DNA of 64,000 nt, from assembly GCA_016194705.1 (NCBI GenBank), contig JACQAZ010000010.1:166-64165 (forward strand), given 5' to 3'. Every line of letters begins with the position of its first letter. The stretch's first letter is position 1. The notes under the pieces are model-generated. The model was not told the origin of the DNA. It worked only from the letters and a program-made list of their open reading frames with translations, and made no database searches. Source of the stretch: Elusimicrobiota bacterium (lineage in GTDB: Bacteria > Elusimicrobiota > Elusimicrobia > UBA1565 > UBA9628). Position numbers and translations under genes: made by a program. Below, piece by piece: positions 1,824 to 43,077 of this stretch.

Positions 1824-2507
1824 ATGGGAAAGAGACTCGCCGCATTAGAGAAGCAGTTGGACGCCGCCAAGCTGTACCCCCTCGAGGAAGCCGCCGCACT
1901 CGTCAAGAAATGCGCCACCGCCAAGTTCGACGAGACCGTCGAGCTGCACGTGCGCCTGGGCGTCGACCCCAAGCAGGCCGACCAGCAGGTCCGCGGCACC
2001 GTGAGCCTGCCTCACGGCTTGGGCAAGTCGAAGAAGGTCGCCGTCGTCACGCGAGGCGAGAAGCAGAAGGACGCGACCAACGCCGGAGCCGATCTCGTCG
2101 GCGGCGACGACTTGATTGAGCAGATCAGCAAGGGCATGCTCGACTTCGACGTCCTGGTCGCGACGCCCGACTTGATGAAAGACCTCTCCAAGCTCGGCAA
2201 GGTGCTGGGCCCCAAGGGCCTCATGCCCAACCCCAAGAGCGGCACGGTGACCATGGACGTCGCCAAGACCGTCAAGGAGCTCAAGGCGGGCCGCGTCGAG
2301 TACAAGGTCGACGACTACGGCATCATCCACGTCCCGGTGGGCAAGGCCTCCTTCGAGCCCGCCAAGATCGCGGGCAACGCGCGCACCGTCCTCGAGGCGC
2401 TGCTCAAGGCCAAGCCCTCGGCCTCCAAGGGAGTCTACATGATGAGCGTGACGCTCTGCTCGAGCATGGGCCCCGGCGTCAAGCTCGATCCCAGCCAGAA
2501 GTTCTAG
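1824..2507 (+). CDS. rplA: 50S ribosomal protein L1
   Basis: A 227-aa protein with canonical L1 features ([16 protein letters not shown]...[11 protein letters not shown]...LVATPDLM). Confidence 0.95.
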
Positions 2508-2523
2508 CGCCGTTCTCCACAAA

Positions 2524-2560
2524 AAGAAAGGACCCTCCGTCGCCGGAGGGTCCTTTCTTT
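2524..2560 (+). terminator. Rho-independent terminator after rplA. It is effectively bidirectional, with an A-run 5' and a T-run 3'.
   Basis: AAAGAAAGGACCCTCCG-TCGC-CGGAGGGTCCTTTCTTT is a perfect GC-rich stem flanked by complementary A-rich and T-rich arms. It lies between rplA (+) and the convergent RDD gene (-). Confidence 0.8.
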
Positions 2561-29161: not shown

Positions 29162-29785
29162 CTGGGCTCTCGCGCGAAACTCGGGAAAAAAGAGCTTCTC
29201 TTCTCCGCGGCCGCATTTGCGGCGGCCCTCGTCGTCAATTATTTTGCCGACGCCTACGTCGAGCGCGTCGGCGAATTGGCCCGGCCTAATCCGGACTCAC
29301 TTCTTCCGCTTCTTCCCTTCATGGACCTGCGCGCGGTCTATCTGTGGGGCGCCGTCGCATTCATCGCGCTTTCGGTCTACGCCGCTGTCTTCCTCGAGCG
29401 TCCGCGGATTGCCTACATAGCGCGCGTCTACGCCGCGCTGATCACCATACGCAGCGGGCTCATGGTGCTGACCCCGATGCACATCCCCGAAGAGGCCCTG
29501 CCTTTGAGCGGCTCAGCGCTCTACGACGGCGCGGGCCGGCTTTTCACGGTGCGCCACGACCTGTTCTTCTCGCTGCACACGGCTTTGCCCTTCCTCGGCT
29601 TCTTGGCCTTCCGCACCGACTGGGTGCGCTGGTCGTGCCTGGCCTTCTCGATTGTGCTGGGCACCACCGTGCTTTTGGGGCGCAACCACTACAGCCTCGA
29701 TGTCGCCGCGGCCTACTTCATCACCTACGCGGTCTACCGTCTGGAGGCCCGTTTCCTCGAGGCGCGGTTTCTGTCCCGGCGCTAG
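29162..29785 (+). CDS. PAP2_C-like (PAP2 superfamily) membrane protein
   Basis: Motifs SLHTALPF (S-x-H) and RNHYSLDV (R-x-x-H-x3-D) are present. There is no ATG before the first TM helix. The first in-frame ATG is 29321; the proposed start is CTG 29162 or an unrecognised start in 29157-29320. Confidence 0.55.
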   Translation: MGSRAKLGKKELLFSAAAFAAALVVNYFADAYVERVGELARPNPDSLLPLLPFMDLRAVYLWGAVAFIALSVYAAVFLERPRIAYIARVYAALITIRSGLMVLTPMHIPEEALPLSGSALYDGAGRLFTVRHDLFFSLHTALPFLGFLAFRTDWVRWSCLAFSIVLGTTVLLGRNHYSLDVAAAYFITYAVYRLEARFLEARFLSRR

Positions 29786-31053
29786 AACCCGACCGCTCCT
29801 CCCACGGTCCAGATCCAACCGCCGGCCCAAGGCTGACCCGGCATGTCGCCCTCGGTCTTTCGTCCCACGGTCAGGCTCGCGTCGAATTTCTTGCTCAGGT
29901 TCACGGTCTCGCCCAAGAGCAGCGCCCCGCCCGGCCGTTGAGCTCGCGCGGCGTCTGCCCAGGCTTGCGCTTCGCCGCTCAGTCTCAGCCGGTCTCCCGC
30001 CGCCTTGAGACCGTCGAGCTTGACCGACATCGCCTCGCCCGCCGGACCCCAGCGGGGCGCAAGCGTCGCCGTCGTCCCGCTGGCGGGACTGCGGACGATC
30101 ATGTCGACGACCTGCCACGACCCATGTCCCACGAAGTTCGAGAACCCGCCGGTCCAGTCGAGACCGCCCAGGCGCACGACCGGTCTGCCGAAATCGGCGC
30201 TGCCGCTGAAAAACTGCCAAGCCCCGAAGGCGACGGCCGCCGCGTTCATCGGGTCGAGCGCGCTGGCCCAAAGCCGCCGCAGCGCCTGGCCGGGATCGGC
30301 CCGGTACAGCGCGTCGTTTTCCCCGAGACCGCCTGGGTAACCGCCCGGCACGGCGGCGGCGTCGAGCCGGTAACGGCTTTGGCCCTTGCCGCCGCCGGGC
30401 AAGTTCAGCCCGGCGAGGGAGAGCAGGTCGTTGACCACGAGGGGCCCGAGCCCCGTGTCGGCGGACTTCGCGCTCGAGCCGTCCACGCGGGGAGGGCCGA
30501 GCGCGACGAACGGCAGCGGGGGCTCGGAGGCCCCGGCGAGGATCGCCTCGAGCTCGCTGCCGGTGCCGCGCGGCCGGGGGCCCCCGTCGAAGTCGAACTC
30601 GGTCGGACCGTCGAGTCGACCGAGCATCGCGCGCGCGTCCTCGGCGAGCTCAGGGATTTCTCGCGCTCGCGTGGATGCGGCGAAGCGGCTGCCCCACGGG
30701 TCGCCCAGGATCGCGCCGGCCACCGCGGCCCAGCCGCAAGGGCTCATCGCGCCGGGCGGCTCGAACCAAGGGAATTGATCCGGAGGGATCTCGGCGACTT
30801 TGAGCGCCTTCAAAAGATAGGCGGAGAGGACCTGCTCTTCGGTCCCCGGCTTGAGGTCCTGCAGGACGGCGGTCAAGGCCGCGACCTCGACGGCGTCTAG
30901 AATCCTCGTCTGCGTCGGATACCCCGGATAGCCGAGGCGCCGGTACTCCCAGCCCTTGCCGGTTTCTATGAGGCCGAGCTTCTCGGTCAGCCCCGCGGAG
31001 GCCGACGCGGAGAGAGCGAGGACGATCCCAAGAATCGCGCCGATCGCCTTCAT
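29782..31053 (-). CDS. secreted Gly/Pro-rich hypothetical protein (423 aa)
   Basis: A signal peptide is present (MKAIGAILGIVLALSASASA). No recognisable domain. Its stop overlaps the convergent PAP2 gene stop (CTAG). Confidence 0.6.
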   Translation of the reverse strand: MKAIGAILGIVLALSASASAGLTEKLGLIETGKGWEYRRLGYPGYPTQTRILDAVEVAALTAVLQDLKPGTEEQVLSAYLLKALKVAEIPPDQFPWFEPPGAMSPCGWAAVAGAILGDPWGSRFAASTRAREIPELAEDARAMLGRLDGPTEFDFDGGPRPRGTGSELEAILAGASEPPLPFVALGPPRVDGSSAKSADTGLGPLVVNDLLSLAGLNLPGGGKGQSRYRLDAAAVPGGYPGGLGENDALYRADPGQALRRLWASALDPMNAAAVAFGAWQFFSGSADFGRPVVRLGGLDWTGGFSNFVGHGSWQVVDMIVRSPASGTTATLAPRWGPAGEAMSVKLDGLKAAGDRLRLSGEAQAWADAARAQRPGGALLLGETVNLSKKFDASLTVGRKTEGDMPGQPWAGGWIWTVGGAVGF

Positions 31054-31187
31054 GCTTTGAGGATAGCCGGCCTCGACCCGGAGCTCATGGGGAGAGCGGC
31101 CCCCGACCGGCCGGCGGAAGGCCGTTTCGCGAGATGAGAGAAGGGGCCCAATATTTATCGTTCCTTGATAATGTCGCCGCGCCGGCC

Positions 31188-31216
31188 TTGACAGCGCAGC
31201 GCAGGCCTGTTATAAC
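31188..31216 (+). promoter_or_regulatory. near-consensus sigma70 promoter, TTGACA-17-TATAAC
   Basis: TTGACA at 31188-31193, a 17-nt spacer, then TATAAC at 31211-31216. It lies 67 nt upstream of proC, in an otherwise GC-rich intergenic region. Confidence 0.6.
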
Positions 31217-31235
31217 ATGGGCGAAGCGCCGCCCA

Positions 31236-31272
31236 CCCGAACCGCCGAACGGGGGTTCGGGTTTTCTGTTTT
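31236..31272 (+). terminator. terminator-like hairpin plus U-tract inside the proC 5' leader (candidate attenuator)
   Basis: CCCGAACC-gccgaacggg-GGTTCGGG is followed by TTTTCTGTTTT. It sits immediately upstream of the proC RBS (AAGGA) and ATG 31283. Confidence 0.5.
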
Positions 31273-31282
31273 AAGGACAACC

Positions 31283-32107
31283 ATGCTCAACAACAAGAAG
31301 ATCGCCGTGATAGGCGCGGGGAACATGGGCAAGGCCCTCATCGGGGGCATGCTGAGCGCGAAGCTCACCCCGCCCAAGAACATCGTCGCCTCGCGCCGAA
31401 ACGAGGAGGCCTTGAAGGAACTGCGCCGGCGGTGGTCCATACACGCGATCGCCGACAACAAAAAAGCGGTCAAGGGCGCCGACATCGTCATACTCGCGGT
31501 CAAACCGCAGCTGGCCCAGGCCGTGCTCGCCGAGATCGCGCCGGTGGTCGACAAGAAACAACTCATCATCAGCATCATGGCGGGCCTGACCACCACCACG
31601 ATCAACAAGAAGCTTAAAAAGTCCTGTCCCGTCGTGCGCGCGATGCCCAACACGCCGTGCCTGGTCGACGCAGGCGCCACCGCAATCTGCGCGGGAGCGC
31701 ACGCGACCGACAAGGACCTCGCCGCGGCCGAAGCGATCTTCAAGTCTGTCGGCAAAGTCGTGACCTTGCCCGAAACCTCCCTCGACGCCGTGACTGGACT
31801 CTCGGGCTCCGGTCCGGTCTACATCTTCATGGTCATCGAAGCGATGATCGACGGCGGCGTCAAGATGGGCATACCGCGCCCCATCGCAGCACAGCTCGCC
31901 GCGCAAACGGTCTTCGGCGCGGCCAAGCTCGTGCTCGAGACGGGCCGCCACCCCGCCATCCTCAAGGACGAGGTCACCACCCCCGGCGGCTGCGCGATCA
32001 ACGCCATCCACATTCTCGAAAACAAAGGCTTAAGGAGCGTGCTCATTGATGCCATCGTCACTGCAACCAACAGGTCCCAAGAGCTCAGCCGTCTTTACGC
32101 CGACTAA
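31283..32107 (+). CDS. proC: pyrroline-5-carboxylate reductase
   Basis: The Rossmann motif IAVIGAGNMG is present, along with the P5CR C-terminal dimerisation region. The start is set at ATG 31283 with RBS AAGGA. The upstream in-frame ATG 31217 overlaps the -10 box and is rejected. Confidence 0.9.
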   Translation: MLNNKKIAVIGAGNMGKALIGGMLSAKLTPPKNIVASRRNEEALKELRRRWSIHAIADNKKAVKGADIVILAVKPQLAQAVLAEIAPVVDKKQLIISIMAGLTTTTINKKLKKSCPVVRAMPNTPCLVDAGATAICAGAHATDKDLAAAEAIFKSVGKVVTLPETSLDAVTGLSGSGPVYIFMVIEAMIDGGVKMGIPRPIAAQLAAQTVFGAAKLVLETGRHPAILKDEVTTPGGCAINAIHILENKGLRSVLIDAIVTATNRSQELSRLYAD

Positions 32108-32111
32108 AACG

Positions 32112-33260
32112 ATGGACCCAAAGTCACTCGAGAACATCCCGCAGCCGACCCTGGTCACGGCCCGGGAGCATCTCGAGGAGGTCGTCTCGGACCTCAAACG
32201 CGCCACGCGCCTGGCTCTCGACATCGAATCCAACGGCTTCTACGCCTACCGCGAGAAGGTCTGCCTGCTGCAGATCTCCTCGGCGGCCGAGGATTACATT
32301 GTAGACCCCATCGCGGTCGCGGACCTCTCCTGCCTGGGTCCGTTGATGAAGGATCCCGCCATCGAGAAGATCTTCCACGCTGGGGAATACGACGTCCTGT
32401 GCCTCAAGCGCGACTACGGCTTCACCTTCGCCAATCTCTTCGACACGATGATCGCAAGTCGCCTCTTGGGGATCAAGGAGCTTGGGCTAGCCGCGCTCAT
32501 CGAGCGGCATTTCGGGCTCAAGCTCTCGAAGAAGCTCCAGCGCGCCGACTGGGGACAACGGCCTATGACCCACGCCCAGATCCGCTACGCCCAGCTCGAC
32601 ACCCACTTCTTGATCGCGCTCGCCGACATCCTCAAGGAGCAGCTCAATCTCAAGGGACGCCACGAGGACGCCTCCGAGGCCTTCGTCGAGCTGACCGCCG
32701 TCGAGCCCAACGAGAAGGTCTTCGATCCCGAGGGCTACTGGAGGCTGGCGGCCCGACAGAAGCTCTCGGGCCCCCAGATCGCCTGCCTGCGCGAAATCTA
32801 CCATTTCCGCGAGGAGCAGGCGCAATCCCGCGATCGAGCCCATTTCCGCGTCATGGCCGACGAACTCATGCTGCGCGTGGCCCACGCCATGCCCGCAACG
32901 ATGGGAGAGCTCGGCCAGGTCCGCGGGATGACGCCCTATCTGCTCTCAAAATTCGGACACGCGCTCCTCAAGGCCGTCTCGCGCGGGCGGGAGAGCGAGC
33001 CGCCCTCGCAAGAGCCCCGCCCCCGAGCGCGCCGAGACATGCGCGAGCTTAAAATTTTCGAGGCCTTGCGGCAGTGGCGGAAAGGCCAGGCTTCGACGGA
33101 AGGCGTCGAGCCGGTCGTCATCATGTCGAGCGAAGTCCTTCGCGAGATCGCCCGCTCGGCCGTCGAGACCGAGGCGGACCCGCTGGGGAAGCTGAGTTCG
33201 CTCAAGCGCGGGCGCTACGGCGAGGCCCTGGAGCGGGTCCTTAAGAGCGCGGGGCGCTAA
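32112..33260 (+). CDS. rnd: ribonuclease D (DEDDy 3'-5' exonuclease plus HRDC domain)
   Basis: LALDIESNG and YAQLDTHFL (the Exo III Y-x3-D) are present, with a C-terminal HRDC region. The start is ATG 32112. Confidence 0.85.
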   Translation: MDPKSLENIPQPTLVTAREHLEEVVSDLKRATRLALDIESNGFYAYREKVCLLQISSAAEDYIVDPIAVADLSCLGPLMKDPAIEKIFHAGEYDVLCLKRDYGFTFANLFDTMIASRLLGIKELGLAALIERHFGLKLSKKLQRADWGQRPMTHAQIRYAQLDTHFLIALADILKEQLNLKGRHEDASEAFVELTAVEPNEKVFDPEGYWRLAARQKLSGPQIACLREIYHFREEQAQSRDRAHFRVMADELMLRVAHAMPATMGELGQVRGMTPYLLSKFGHALLKAVSRGRESEPPSQEPRPRARRDMRELKIFEALRQWRKGQASTEGVEPVVIMSSEVLREIARSAVETEADPLGKLSSLKRGRYGEALERVLKSAGR

Positions 33261-40904: not shown

Positions 40905-42380
40905 TCATTCCCGCACGATCTCGACCGAAAAGACCTTTAACCGGGCTGCGGAGTCCTTCCAGCACTGCCGCGAAAGATGCGCCTTCTGCGAGCACAGTTC
41001 GCCCAGGAATGACTCCTTGTCCTTGAGCTGCTCCCAGACCTGCGGGAGGAAGACCCCGGAGCTTCCCCCTTCCTCGACGATGACCCCGTCGCCCTTGCGG
41101 ATCTCGGAGGCCGACTTGACCTCCTTGGACTGGGAGAGCCGCGAGACCTCGATGCGCAGGCCGGGAAGCTCGGCGGCCTGCACGGGCTTGAAGCGCGAGT
41201 CGCTGACAGCACTTGCCACCGCGTTGTGGGCCACGGACTCGACGAGGCTCTCCTGGGCCTGCAGCGAGCCGATGCAGCCGCGCAGCTCGCCAGAGGCCTT
41301 CTCGAGGGTCACGAAAACCGCGGCGGGCAGGTTCAGCCTGGGGTCCTTCGACAGCGCGACGGCGGGCATCTTGCCCGAGGCGAGGTAGCCTTCGATGCTG
41401 CGGCGCGCCAGGACCAAGAGCTCTTTTTTCTCGGAACCGTCGAGCGCGGCCGGGACCGCGGCGGAGACTCCCTTCAAAAAGACGACCGCGGCGTATCCTA
41501 CGACATGATGATAATCCCGCTCGGAGACGACGTCGCCCGAGTTGATGTGCGAGAGAACGCGCGCCTGCGTCGCGCCCAGCTCGCGCGCCGCGGTCATGAC
41601 GGCGGTCACGGCCCCCTCGCCGCAGTAGGTCACCGCAAGGCTCTCGAGGCCGCGGTTCATGAGCAGCCGGTTGGTCAGCCAGAAATAGGCGGGGTCCAAG
41701 GTCTTCAAGGCCTCGAGCGTCGTCCGATCGACGATGTCGGAGAGAGGCCCGCTGGGGTAGTGAGATTGATCGGAGGAGGCCACGAGAAGCACGCGCTTGC
41801 CCTTGATGGCGGAGGCCAGCGCGCGGCCGATGATGCGCGCGGACTCGAGGTCCTGCGTGTTCATGACCATGCCGACGATTTTGACGGATCCCAGACGGTA
41901 CCGCAGGAATGGGACCTGGACCTCGATCGAATGCTCCTTGTCGTGAGCCCGAGCGTCGAGCTTGATCAAGCTCGTGGTCTTGACCAATGCCCCGGCCAAG
42001 GCCGCGTCGTACTCCAGCGAGCCCTCTGGGGTCGCGTAAGCCCCAGGGTAAATCGCCGCGCCCTCGAGCTCCTTGTAATGCCCGGTTCCGAGCACGACCA
42101 CGGTATCCCAGTGCCCGGGAGCGAGCAGCTTGTAGGCGCGCGCCGCGGTCGCGCCCGAGTACTCAAGCCCGGCGTGAGGGACGAGCACGGCGACGATCTC
42201 GCCCGGGACTTTCTCGTTTGGCGCGGCTTTCAAAAGGCTCTCTACGAGCGCCTCGAGAGCCTTGGCGGACAGGGGATAGAAGCGGCCGGCCACCGACGGC
42301 AGTCTAACCGCCGCGGCCGCCGCCGCGGCGGTCAAAAAAGACAGGAAAATCCAGCCCGATCTCTTTAATAATCCGTTCAC
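40905..42380 (-). CDS. fusion of a Memo-like domain (AmmeMemoRadiSam system protein B family) with a C-terminal AMMECR1 domain (protein A family), preceded by a predicted signal peptide
   Basis: The GTG start at 42380 gives a signal-peptide-like N-terminus (MNGLLKRSGWIFLSFLTAAAAAAA). The conserved Memo start VRLPSVAGRFYP...LVPHAGLEYSG follows. The C-terminal AMMECR1 region carries RGCIGSL and VFLPQVWE. Confidence 0.8.
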   Translation of the reverse strand: MNGLLKRSGWIFLSFLTAAAAAAAVRLPSVAGRFYPLSAKALEALVESLLKAAPNEKVPGEIVAVLVPHAGLEYSGATAARAYKLLAPGHWDTVVVLGTGHYKELEGAAIYPGAYATPEGSLEYDAALAGALVKTTSLIKLDARAHDKEHSIEVQVPFLRYRLGSVKIVGMVMNTQDLESARIIGRALASAIKGKRVLLVASSDQSHYPSGPLSDIVDRTTLEALKTLDPAYFWLTNRLLMNRGLESLAVTYCGEGAVTAVMTAARELGATQARVLSHINSGDVVSERDYHHVVGYAAVVFLKGVSAAVPAALDGSEKKELLVLARRSIEGYLASGKMPAVALSKDPRLNLPAAVFVTLEKASGELRGCIGSLQAQESLVESVAHNAVASAVSDSRFKPVQAAELPGLRIEVSRLSQSKEVKSASEIRKGDGVIVEEGGSSGVFLPQVWEQLKDKESFLGELCSQKAHLSRQCWKDSAARLKVFSVEIVRE

Positions 42381-42483
42381 AGGTTCGAAATCAATTCCGA
42401 ACAGGTTTCCGCTAAACTAACCCCAGAGGCGCACAACAGTACGGCATCTAAGTTCGACAACTGAAGACAACGACCACCAGGAG

Positions 42484-42524
42484 CCCGCCCCTGCATGACT
42501 CTCCGCATGCAGGGGCGGTTTTTT
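42484..42524 (+). terminator. plus-strand intrinsic-terminator-like hairpin with a U6 tract in a minus-strand gene region. It may mark the 3' end of a small RNA on the plus strand.
   Basis: CCCGCCCCTGCATG-actctccg-CATGCAGGGGCGG is followed by TTTTTT. Genes on both sides are on the minus strand, and on that strand the T-tract is on the wrong side of the hairpin. Confidence 0.45.
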
Positions 42525-43077
42525 ACTCCGGTTTTCCCACCTTCTCGAAATTGCGCATGATCGTCTCGAGCCAGCGCTGATCCATCTCGTCGAAAGCCGA
42601 CTTGGCTTCGCTGTCGGCGTCGAAGACCGCCCAGACCTTGCCGTCCTTGTCGTAGACCGGGACCGCGATCTCGCTTTGGTTCTTGGGGTCGCACTCGATG
42701 TGCTGGTCTCCCAACGCCTTCACGTCCGGCACGATGATCGTCTTGCCTTCCTTGAGCGCCTTGCCGCAGACTCCGCTCAGCGGCAGCGGCGAGCAGGCCG
42801 GCTTCTCGCGATGGGCTCCGAGGATGAGCTCCTGGCCGCCGGGCGGGAGAACATAGAAGCCGCACCAAGAGTACGGGCTTTGCGCGAAGGTGTCCCACAA
42901 TTCGTCGACGATCTCGCGCATCATGCGCTCGCTTTTGAGCTCGCGGCGGCGCCATCTCTTCTCGAGATTGGCGTGCGCCTTGTCGTAGCGCGCCCGCGAG
43001 GGACGCGACCTCATCGCGTTGGCGTCCTTGATCTCCTGCATCTCGTTGGTCAGCTCACGTTCCTTTTCATTGGCCAT
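42523..43077 (-). CDS. GAF-domain protein of the free-methionine-(R)-sulfoxide reductase (fRMsr/YebR) type, with a basic N-terminal extension
   Basis: WCGFYVL, ACSPLPLSGVCGKA and SEIAVPV match the fRMsr catalytic Cys pattern. The start is uncertain because several Met codons are available. Confidence 0.7.
   Translation of the reverse strand: MANEKERELTNEMQEIKDANAMRSRPSRARYDKAHANLEKRWRRRELKSERMMREIVDELWDTFAQSPYSWCGFYVLPPGGQELILGAHREKPACSPLPLSGVCGKALKEGKTIIVPDVKALGDQHIECDPKNQSEIAVPVYDKDGKVWAVFDADSEAKSAFDEMDQRWLETIMRNFEKVGKPE

Follow-up and report, generated by a model that had tools for sequence, protein, structure and literature searches.

A conserved promoter, hairpin and U-tract module in the probable leaders of RNase D-like transcription units of uncultured Elusimicrobia

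What a near-consensus promoter is doing directly in front of what resembles a complete intrinsic terminator, with both compressed into the short leader of proC, is the question raised by positions 31188 to 31282 of the window, as the whole 64-kb stretch of DNA under analysis is called here. Given a complete terminator downstream of its own promoter, an attenuator or an RNA of ~40-60 nt is the natural reading, and the initial annotation had accordingly proposed either an attenuator of proC or a tiny small RNA. The setting is a phylum without a cultured model for gene regulation.

The promoter consists of a -35 hexamer, TTGACA (31188-31193, plus strand), and an extended -10 element, TG-t-TATAAC (31208-31216), of which the hexamer TATAAC occupies 31211-31216; the two hexamers are separated by a spacer of 17 nt (31194-31210), the last three bases of which are TGt. 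Eleven of the 12 hexamer positions match the sigma-70 consensus, with the TG in addition, and the exception is the last base of the -10, where a C stands for the conserved T. A generic promoter scan overlooked this TTGACA-17-TATAAC arrangement because the scan requires a T at exactly that position. The initial annotation had placed both hexamers correctly while missing the TG of the extended -10, and its remark on the rarity of such a promoter was borne out by a count, TTGAC-N15-19-TATAA occurring once in the 64 kb against an expectation of 0.01. Transcription is predicted from sigma-70 geometry to start 6-8 nt past the -10, at 31222-31224. The end of the -10 is separated from the proC ATG by 66 nt, and the leader, counted from a predicted start near 31223, would be ~60 nt long.

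Within this leader lies a hairpin (31235-31262, plus strand), the arms of which, ACCCGAACC (31235-31243) and GGTTCGGGT (31254-31262), form nine pairs, followed by a G·G mismatch, two CC/GG pairs and a 4-nt GAAC loop. The 5' arm together with the first loop bases makes up the motif ACCCGRAMCGCCGA (31235-31248), which is near-invariant among the 25 sequences discussed below. The U-tract, TTTTCTGTTTT (31262-31272), begins at the final stem base and runs up to a Shine-Dalgarno sequence, AAGGA (31273-31277), 5 nt 5' of the proC ATG (31283) and essentially unpaired in the leader fold. The order of GC hairpin, T-tract and Shine-Dalgarno sequence was as initially described, the stem now being counted as 9+2 bp. 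Folded alone, the hairpin reaches -21.5 kcal/mol, a stability not equalled by any of 200 shuffled sequences (z = -3.7). The folding check suggested at the outset was positive to that extent; longer leader folds of 50-79 nt, in contrast, were not significantly more stable than their shuffles (z ~ -1.2). The features by which intrinsic terminators are recognised in sequence, namely a GC-rich stem of at least 5-6 bp, a short loop and an adjoining U-tract, are all present, and clean hairpin and T-tract sites with a dG of -20 or lower number about three in the window (2525 on the minus strand; 31262 and 42519 on the plus strand).

Two further features of the window hairpin may be recorded. A second copy of CCGAAC allows an alternative 6-bp register, CCGAAC/GTTCGG (31245-31260), with the same 3' arm, and it was this register that a generic terminator scan reported; it too is a terminator and not an antiterminator. 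The segment CGAAC-N4-GTTCG corresponds to the consensus of the Gram-positive LexA (Cheo) box. Neither is kept in more distant relatives.

The first gene downstream, proC (31283-32107, plus strand), encodes a pyrroline-5-carboxylate reductase with the Pfam domains P5CR_dimer and F420_oxidored, and its product scores 297.8 bits against TIGR00112, over the equivalog cut-off. It is followed by an rnd-like gene (32112-33260, plus strand), the product of which carries the Pfam domains DNA_pol_A_exo1 (a DEDD 3'-5' exonuclease) and HRDC; of the NCBIfam models it matches TIGR01388 (rnd) best, over nearly the full length, at 189 bits where the cut-off is 299, and its homologues are named "ribonuclease D" or "HRDC domain-containing protein" at JGI and NCBI. 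Since rnd starts 4 nt past the proC stop, proC and rnd are regarded as one unit in the window, and no second promoter for this unit is evident there. On the other side lies a gene on the minus strand (29782-31053), divergent as originally annotated, whose 423-aa product has a signal-peptide-like N-terminus, matched nothing in Pfam or NCBIfam and had no homologue adjoining proC in 32 relatives searched by tblastn; by its sequence it is a putative lineage-specific secreted protein. The possibility that the hairpin is the terminator of an upstream gene was discarded, the upstream gene of the window being divergent and the promoter preceding the hairpin in 23 modules.

Whether promoter, hairpin and U-tract belong together was addressed by comparison with loci gathered from genome contigs, from metagenome contigs and through homologues of the downstream rnd gene, the relatives being uncultured Elusimicrobia by ProC homology; L001, L027 and L028 stem from peat or palsa and groundwater samples. 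The complete module (promoter, hairpin and T-tract) was recovered at 25 loci, 24 of them distinct, of uncultured Elusimicrobia, where the encoded proteins are 68-90% (ProC) and 46-82% (Rnd) identical to those of the window. The shared layout comprises TTGAC[A/G], 17-18 nt ending in cTGt, TATAA[A/C], the hairpin and a T-run. An extended -10 promoter of the sigma-70 type is recognisable in 23 of the 25 modules and lies upstream of the hairpin in all 23; 23 modules retain the -35 together with the 17/18-nt spacer and TGTTATAA, cTGTTATAA[A/C] recurring as the -10, and the -35 reads TTGAC[A/G] in 22 of 25 (TTGCCC in L008). A T-run of at least three follows the stem in 24 of the 25 modules and one of at least four in 23, with L109 degenerate at this point (CTTATTC). 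The U-rich stretch as a whole measures 10-14 nt, usually as T4-6, N1-2, T3-5, and the distance from the end of the module to the start codon is always 6-35 nt. In about half of the modules, the Shine-Dalgarno sequence is missing and the U-tract abuts the start codon (L003, L108, L109, L041 and L028, and further L032, L035, L036 and L111).

The hairpin itself is conserved in two different ways. Its 5' arm and loop are conserved as sequence: CGCC is invariant in 25 of 25, G.A.CGCCGA is at least 90% conserved among the 25, and one group of relatives, clade B below, keeps the ACCCGRAMCGCCGA motif even though its first bases are unpaired there. The remainder of the stem is conserved as structure, with folding energies of -11 to -24 kcal/mol for the 25 homologous hairpins and stem variants such as CCCGAACC/GGTTCGGG, CCCGGACC/GGTCCGGG and CCCGGAA/TTCCGGG. 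Compensatory pairs (G-C/A-U/G·U, C-G/A-U and C-G/U-A) are found at three separate stem positions, with G·U pairs in L028 and L111. When counted over a MAFFT alignment (A7), 85% of the cells were paired and double changes were found in four of the nine pairs (11 cells); the covariation score was 0.137 as against 0.089 in shuffles, a level reached in 1 of 500, and slid registers scored far worse. The count is conservative, since the rows of L002, L038/L042, L005 and L040, in which the 3' arm is one column off, were retained in the alignment. The request that the hairpin and T-tract be sought in relatives has been answered in the affirmative, with compensatory changes in addition to their retention at 25 loci, and these comparisons support the view that promoter, hairpin and U-tract would constitute a functional element and not a chance arrangement.

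The module is not a repeated or mobile element. Covariance models detected it once in the 64-kb window, at 44 bits with the next best hit at 15, and no further copies elsewhere in ~0.7 Mb of the loci examined. The first model (R1) covers the hairpin and T-tract, and its default filters overlooked the L030 module, which was spotted by eye; a second model (R2) was run with the filters off. When viral contigs were scanned for ACCCGGAACGCCGA, at least 120 stretches matched; these were set aside as chance 14-mers, the 3' arm and the T-tract being absent in all 80 examined. Searching the whole window against Rfam 15 at the gathering score returned a single match, the tRNA at 153-225, and relaxing the search of 31000-31400 to E<=10 returned three chance matches, all on the minus strand.

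A palindrome just downstream of a promoter might also be read as DNA, that is to say as the site of a repressor acting as a roadblock, LexA being an example. The perfect symmetry of the inverted repeat in the window and its position would suit such an operator, and compensatory changes suit a palindrome as well as they suit a hairpin. The reading is nevertheless very improbable. The arms are separated by anything from 4 to 18 nt, and L037 has a sub-hairpin inserted into the loop, a variation that fits an RNA hairpin and does not fit an operator of fixed spacing; the G·U pairs of L028 and L111 are tolerated in RNA but would be mismatches in a DNA palindrome. Moreover, an operator would have no use for the conserved T-tract, and the conserved motif lacks symmetry. 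The register GAAC-N4-GTTC is not conserved in L003, in L027 or in any clade-B module, and the LexA-type box CGAAC-N4-GTTCG was rejected as a candidate, being confined to the window and its closest relatives.

To which gene the module belongs became apparent from relatives that lack a hairpin upstream of proC, in which the R1 matches were positioned downstream of proC; there the module is complete with its promoter and stands directly 5' of the homologue of the window ORF 32112-33260. The loci can be sorted accordingly. In type A the order is module, proC, rnd, as in the window, L001, L002, L003 (=L031), L005, L006, L008, L027, L028, L037, L041, L108, L109 and L116, and also in L040, where the contig ends before rnd would be visible. 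A variant, type A', is seen in L114, where the module is followed by a 16-codon in-frame proC stub (MLKNEKIALIGAG|YAD*) and then by rnd. Type B has the order proC, no or one intervening gene, module, rnd (L030, L032, L034, L035, L036, L038, L042, L111 and L112), and its proC has a TGTTATA[AT] promoter of its own with almost no leader. Type C has no module (L004, L007, L009, L010, L012, L029, L033, L113 and L115), nor has L110, where other genes take the place of proC; no module was detected in clade-C loci by R2 with the filters off. In a neighbour-joining tree of Rnd, B forms one clade and C mostly one clade nested among the A lineages, and since A is basal and paraphyletic, the order module-proC-rnd is probably ancestral.

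The inference that the module tracks rnd rests on two independent events in which it stayed beside rnd, apart from proC or without it: gene order was rearranged once at the root of clade B, and proC was deleted in L114; no locus with the module and proC but without rnd was encountered among those mapped. Judged by gene order, the module is part of the transcription unit containing rnd, which in this genome happens to begin with proC. The link to proC drawn in the initial annotation, and with it a link to proline, is not supported: the module stands directly before rnd, downstream of proC, in nine relatives, and L114 has kept it although proC is reduced to a stub. What had appeared to be an isolated proC attenuator is now defined as a conserved leader motif in RNA, known from ~25 examples and described by a consensus and a covariance model, and its functional assignment is corrected from proline biosynthesis to the RNase D gene. 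The absence of the module from clade C and from L110 indicates that it is dispensable.

A proline-responsive attenuator of proC, operating by a leader peptide with proline codons, a T-box or a riboswitch, is hardly credible in the light of these gene orders, the module of clade B coming after proC and before rnd while proC itself is served by a promoter of the leaderless type, and the module of L114 having outlived proC. Such an attenuator would account for the position of the module upstream of proC at 15 loci, for the CCG in the loop motif and for the CCG/CCC triplets; the initial remark on the latter was right as to number, with six in 66 nt, although they have no reading-frame context. Attenuation by a leader peptide or proline codons was rejected for want of a conserved start codon or open reading frame, L027 and L028 having none in any frame, and the only in-frame ATG ahead of proC in the window (31217) abuts the -10, upstream of the predicted start. 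A riboswitch or T-box was likewise rejected, with no Rfam match even at E<=10 and no space for an aptamer or an antiterminator. The distance from the -10 to the hairpin is 7-26 nt across the modules, and the hairpins of L002 and L108 start at about +1, so that no antiterminator in cis is possible there.

The module is very probably a 5' leader acting in cis on the unit that contains rnd. An independent gene for a tiny trans-acting small RNA of ~35-60 nt, with the downstream genes expressed by read-through only, would also present itself as a self-contained unit with a near-consensus promoter and a terminator, both conserved; its invariant apical motif could serve for protein binding or for the formation of a kissing loop, and its shift relative to proC as one unit would be natural. 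This is unlikely, though, for a gene whose position is always 6-35 nt 5' of the start codon of the rnd unit and never elsewhere, and for which read-through is obligatory in the window, where another promoter for proC-rnd is not evident. The single-stranded 5' tail that such an RNA would possess is unconserved, and absent in L002 and L108, conservation being limited to the 5' arm of the hairpin and the loop; nor was the module found relocated in the sequence examined when lost from clade C, and it has no Rfam match. Trans-acting RNAs released from prematurely terminated leaders are known, such as the riboswitch-derived SreA and SreB of Listeria, and the module resembles these in that its strong promoter would drive the synthesis of a short, terminated leader RNA in abundance, but differs in that it has no aptamer.

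As to how the cis-acting leader would work, the reading favoured here is that of a leaky intrinsic terminator combined with a U-tract that aids ribosome loading, for which the chances are put at about even. Transcription would start ~7 nt past the extended -10, and the GC-rich hairpin and U-run would form within ~12 nt of the predicted start. Some polymerases would stop at the U-run, giving rise to an RNA of ~40-50 nt, and the remainder would read through; the claim that a sizeable share of the transcripts ends there is, going by the sequence, equally balanced between yes and no. The unit has no other evident promoter in the window and its expression therefore needs read-through, hence the notion of a leaky attenuator, which would set the yield of proC-rnd mRNA from a very strong promoter. 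On the mRNA that is read through, the hairpin near the 5' end may protect that end, and the U-rich stretch of 10-14 nt just 5' of the start codon probably aids loading of the 30S subunit through S1.

Intrinsic terminators in 5' leaders are well known as attenuators, either constitutive, as in rplL-rpoB, or under the control of a factor, as in the targets of PyrR, TRAP and LicT/SacY. The module is like these in that a Rho-independent terminator follows the promoter and precedes the first start codon, so that read-through is needed. It differs in having neither antiterminator nor anti-antiterminator, no repeats or RAT-like element, and an extremely short leader, the hairpin beginning anywhere from +1 to +20. 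The lack of room for an alternative structure in some relatives leaves regulation, if any, to a factor in trans or to properties of the polymerase. A trans factor would recognise the near-invariant apical motif ..GRAMCGCCGA.., and the conservation of that part of the hairpin suggests a factor of this kind; a constitutive terminator leaves unexplained a near-invariant sequence of 5' arm and loop which is in places partly unpaired.

The closest analogue to this arrangement is the leader of rnd in E. coli (Zhang & Deutscher, J Biol Chem 1989 and PNAS 1992; sequence in NC_000913.3), where ACGCCGG-TTAAT-CCGGCGT is followed by T8 and lies 27 nt before the TTG start. The two leaders have in common the kind of gene downstream, a promoter, a terminator-like hairpin, a U-run and a start codon within ~30 nt, and the rnd-type architecture, in which a terminator-like hairpin and a U-run separate the promoter from the beginning of the unit, is found in the window and in 24 relatives; the clade-B hairpin, as in E. 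coli, lies just past the stop of a co-directional upstream gene. They differ in that the ACCCGRAMCGCCGA motif is absent from E. coli, leaving only a GC hairpin and a T-run in common, and in that the first gene of the elusimicrobial unit is often proC. With the architecture alone being shared between very distant phyla, the relationship is one of analogy, possibly by convergence. The U-rich tract of E. coli rnd mRNA is mentioned as a translational enhancer that binds the 30S subunit in two papers (PMC5934652, PMC7769764) with reference to Zhang & Deutscher 1992, and a 1989 paper on the upstream region of E. coli rnd figures among the works cited in PMC3592434. The hairpin and U8 leader of E. 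coli rnd is 35 years old and still poorly understood. Zhang and Deutscher are said to have found that the hairpin alters translation, or the amount of protein, rather than the level of mRNA.

That reported effect on translation favours an explanation for the Elusimicrobia in which no appreciable termination takes place in vivo and the leader is purely post-transcriptional in the style of E. coli rnd, the hairpin near the 5' end stabilising the mRNA and the U-tract acting as a loading site for S1 and the ribosome that replaces or supplements a weak or absent Shine-Dalgarno sequence. Besides the precedent itself, it would make sense of a bipartite U-rich stretch (10-14 nt) that is longer than those of the gene-end terminators of the window, of a U-tract abutting the start codon and of the missing Shine-Dalgarno sequence in about half of the modules. 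The hairpin that starts at about +1 in L002 and L108 has the typical position of a 5' stabiliser, and L109 has kept its hairpin without a proper U-run; its retention beside CTTATTC, which would terminate poorly, implies that the hairpin matters beyond termination. Stabilising stem-loops at the 5' terminus are exemplified by the hairpin in the 5' UTR of ompA, and L002 and L108 likewise have a stable hairpin at, or within a few nucleotides of, the mRNA 5' end; hairpins of the ompA type, however, have no terminator U-tract, and that of the window is ~12 nt from its predicted 5' end. Against a leader without appreciable termination stands the combination of 9-12 GC-rich bp with about 4-9 adjoining U in 24 of the 25 modules, which by sequence rules amounts to a strong intrinsic terminator, and no feature that would block termination is present in the sequence; the invariant CGCCGA motif is also left unexplained. 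A purely post-transcriptional leader is accordingly considered possible but rather doubtful, and its functions are compatible with termination, the two not being mutually exclusive.

A bolder reading would have the leader serve as a dedicated control device for RNase D that originated or persisted in phyla as distant as Proteobacteria and Elusimicrobia, the apical motif binding a specific factor in an autoregulatory manner. The bound factor might be RNase D itself, through its HRDC domain, and the recognised structure would comprise a bulged or paired G, the CC/GG pairs and a loop initiated by GA, the stem of 10-12 bp, loop of ~7 nt and U-trailer mimicking the minihelix of a tRNA precursor. 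Free RNase D would then adjust how its own mRNA is terminated, stabilised or translated, and the abundant terminated RNA of ~40-60 nt might serve as a decoy. Autoregulatory loops on the own mRNA are established for RNase E, RNase III and PNPase. For RNase D such a loop is a speculative proposition with little probability attached to it.

The motif is in no Rfam family, and no published description of it was found in the literature consulted, which concerned the E. coli rnd leader; the kind of element is already known, being a promoter-proximal, terminator-like leader with an analogue at E. coli rnd. The analogy raises the idea that terminator-like leaders may be a general means of setting RNase D expression. 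The finding would gain weight if such leaders prove to be general for rnd across phyla, or if the motif proves to be an autoregulatory site of RNase D. Its practical yield is modest, consisting of a compact natural cassette of promoter, terminator and U-rich tract together with a candidate protein-binding hairpin.

Several minor observations were made along the way. Canonical terminators are in use in this genome, as at the sites 2525 (minus strand) and 42519 (plus strand). The former belongs to a perfect 15-bp hairpin, AGAAAGGACCCTCCG-GCGA-CGGAGGGTCCTTTCT, followed by T5 (2492-2530, minus strand; -29.5 kcal/mol), presumably a gene-end terminator since it lies directly past the end (2562) of a long ORF on the minus strand. 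The latter closes a non-coding region of lower GC content and ~140 nt (42380-42525, plus strand) downstream of the ORF 41226-42368, in an intrinsic terminator (CCGCCCCTGCATG...CATGCAGGGGCGG + T6; -27.7 kcal/mol) that was called the strongest of the window; the region may represent an extended 3' UTR or else encode a small RNA, and had no Rfam match at the gathering score. The tRNA gene at 153-225 is on the plus strand.

The proC stub of L114 (3949-3999) is a natural in-frame deletion that joins the first 13 codons to the last 3, with the module still upstream and the stop of the stub 1 nt before the ATG of rnd, an arrangement which suggests that translational coupling into rnd may be under selection. 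In clade B, a shared motif, CATTAC-N6-TGTTAC-N6..GCGAA, is found 40-110 nt upstream of proC (L030, L034-L036, L038, L042 and L044), in the interval from the divergent upstream gene to the promoter of proC, and could be a transcription-factor site or the promoter of the divergent gene; the proC -10 of the same loci is ~8 nt from the ATG, which implies a leaderless or near-leaderless proC mRNA. Finally, clade C has a different hairpin upstream of proC (L009, L113 and L115), without a T-tract and with the Shine-Dalgarno sequence inside the 3' arm, the example of L009 (about 2670-2714) reading CTCCGGAGGC-GCAGA-GCCTCCGGGAG followed by CCTG ATG; it is possibly a translational control element of another kind.
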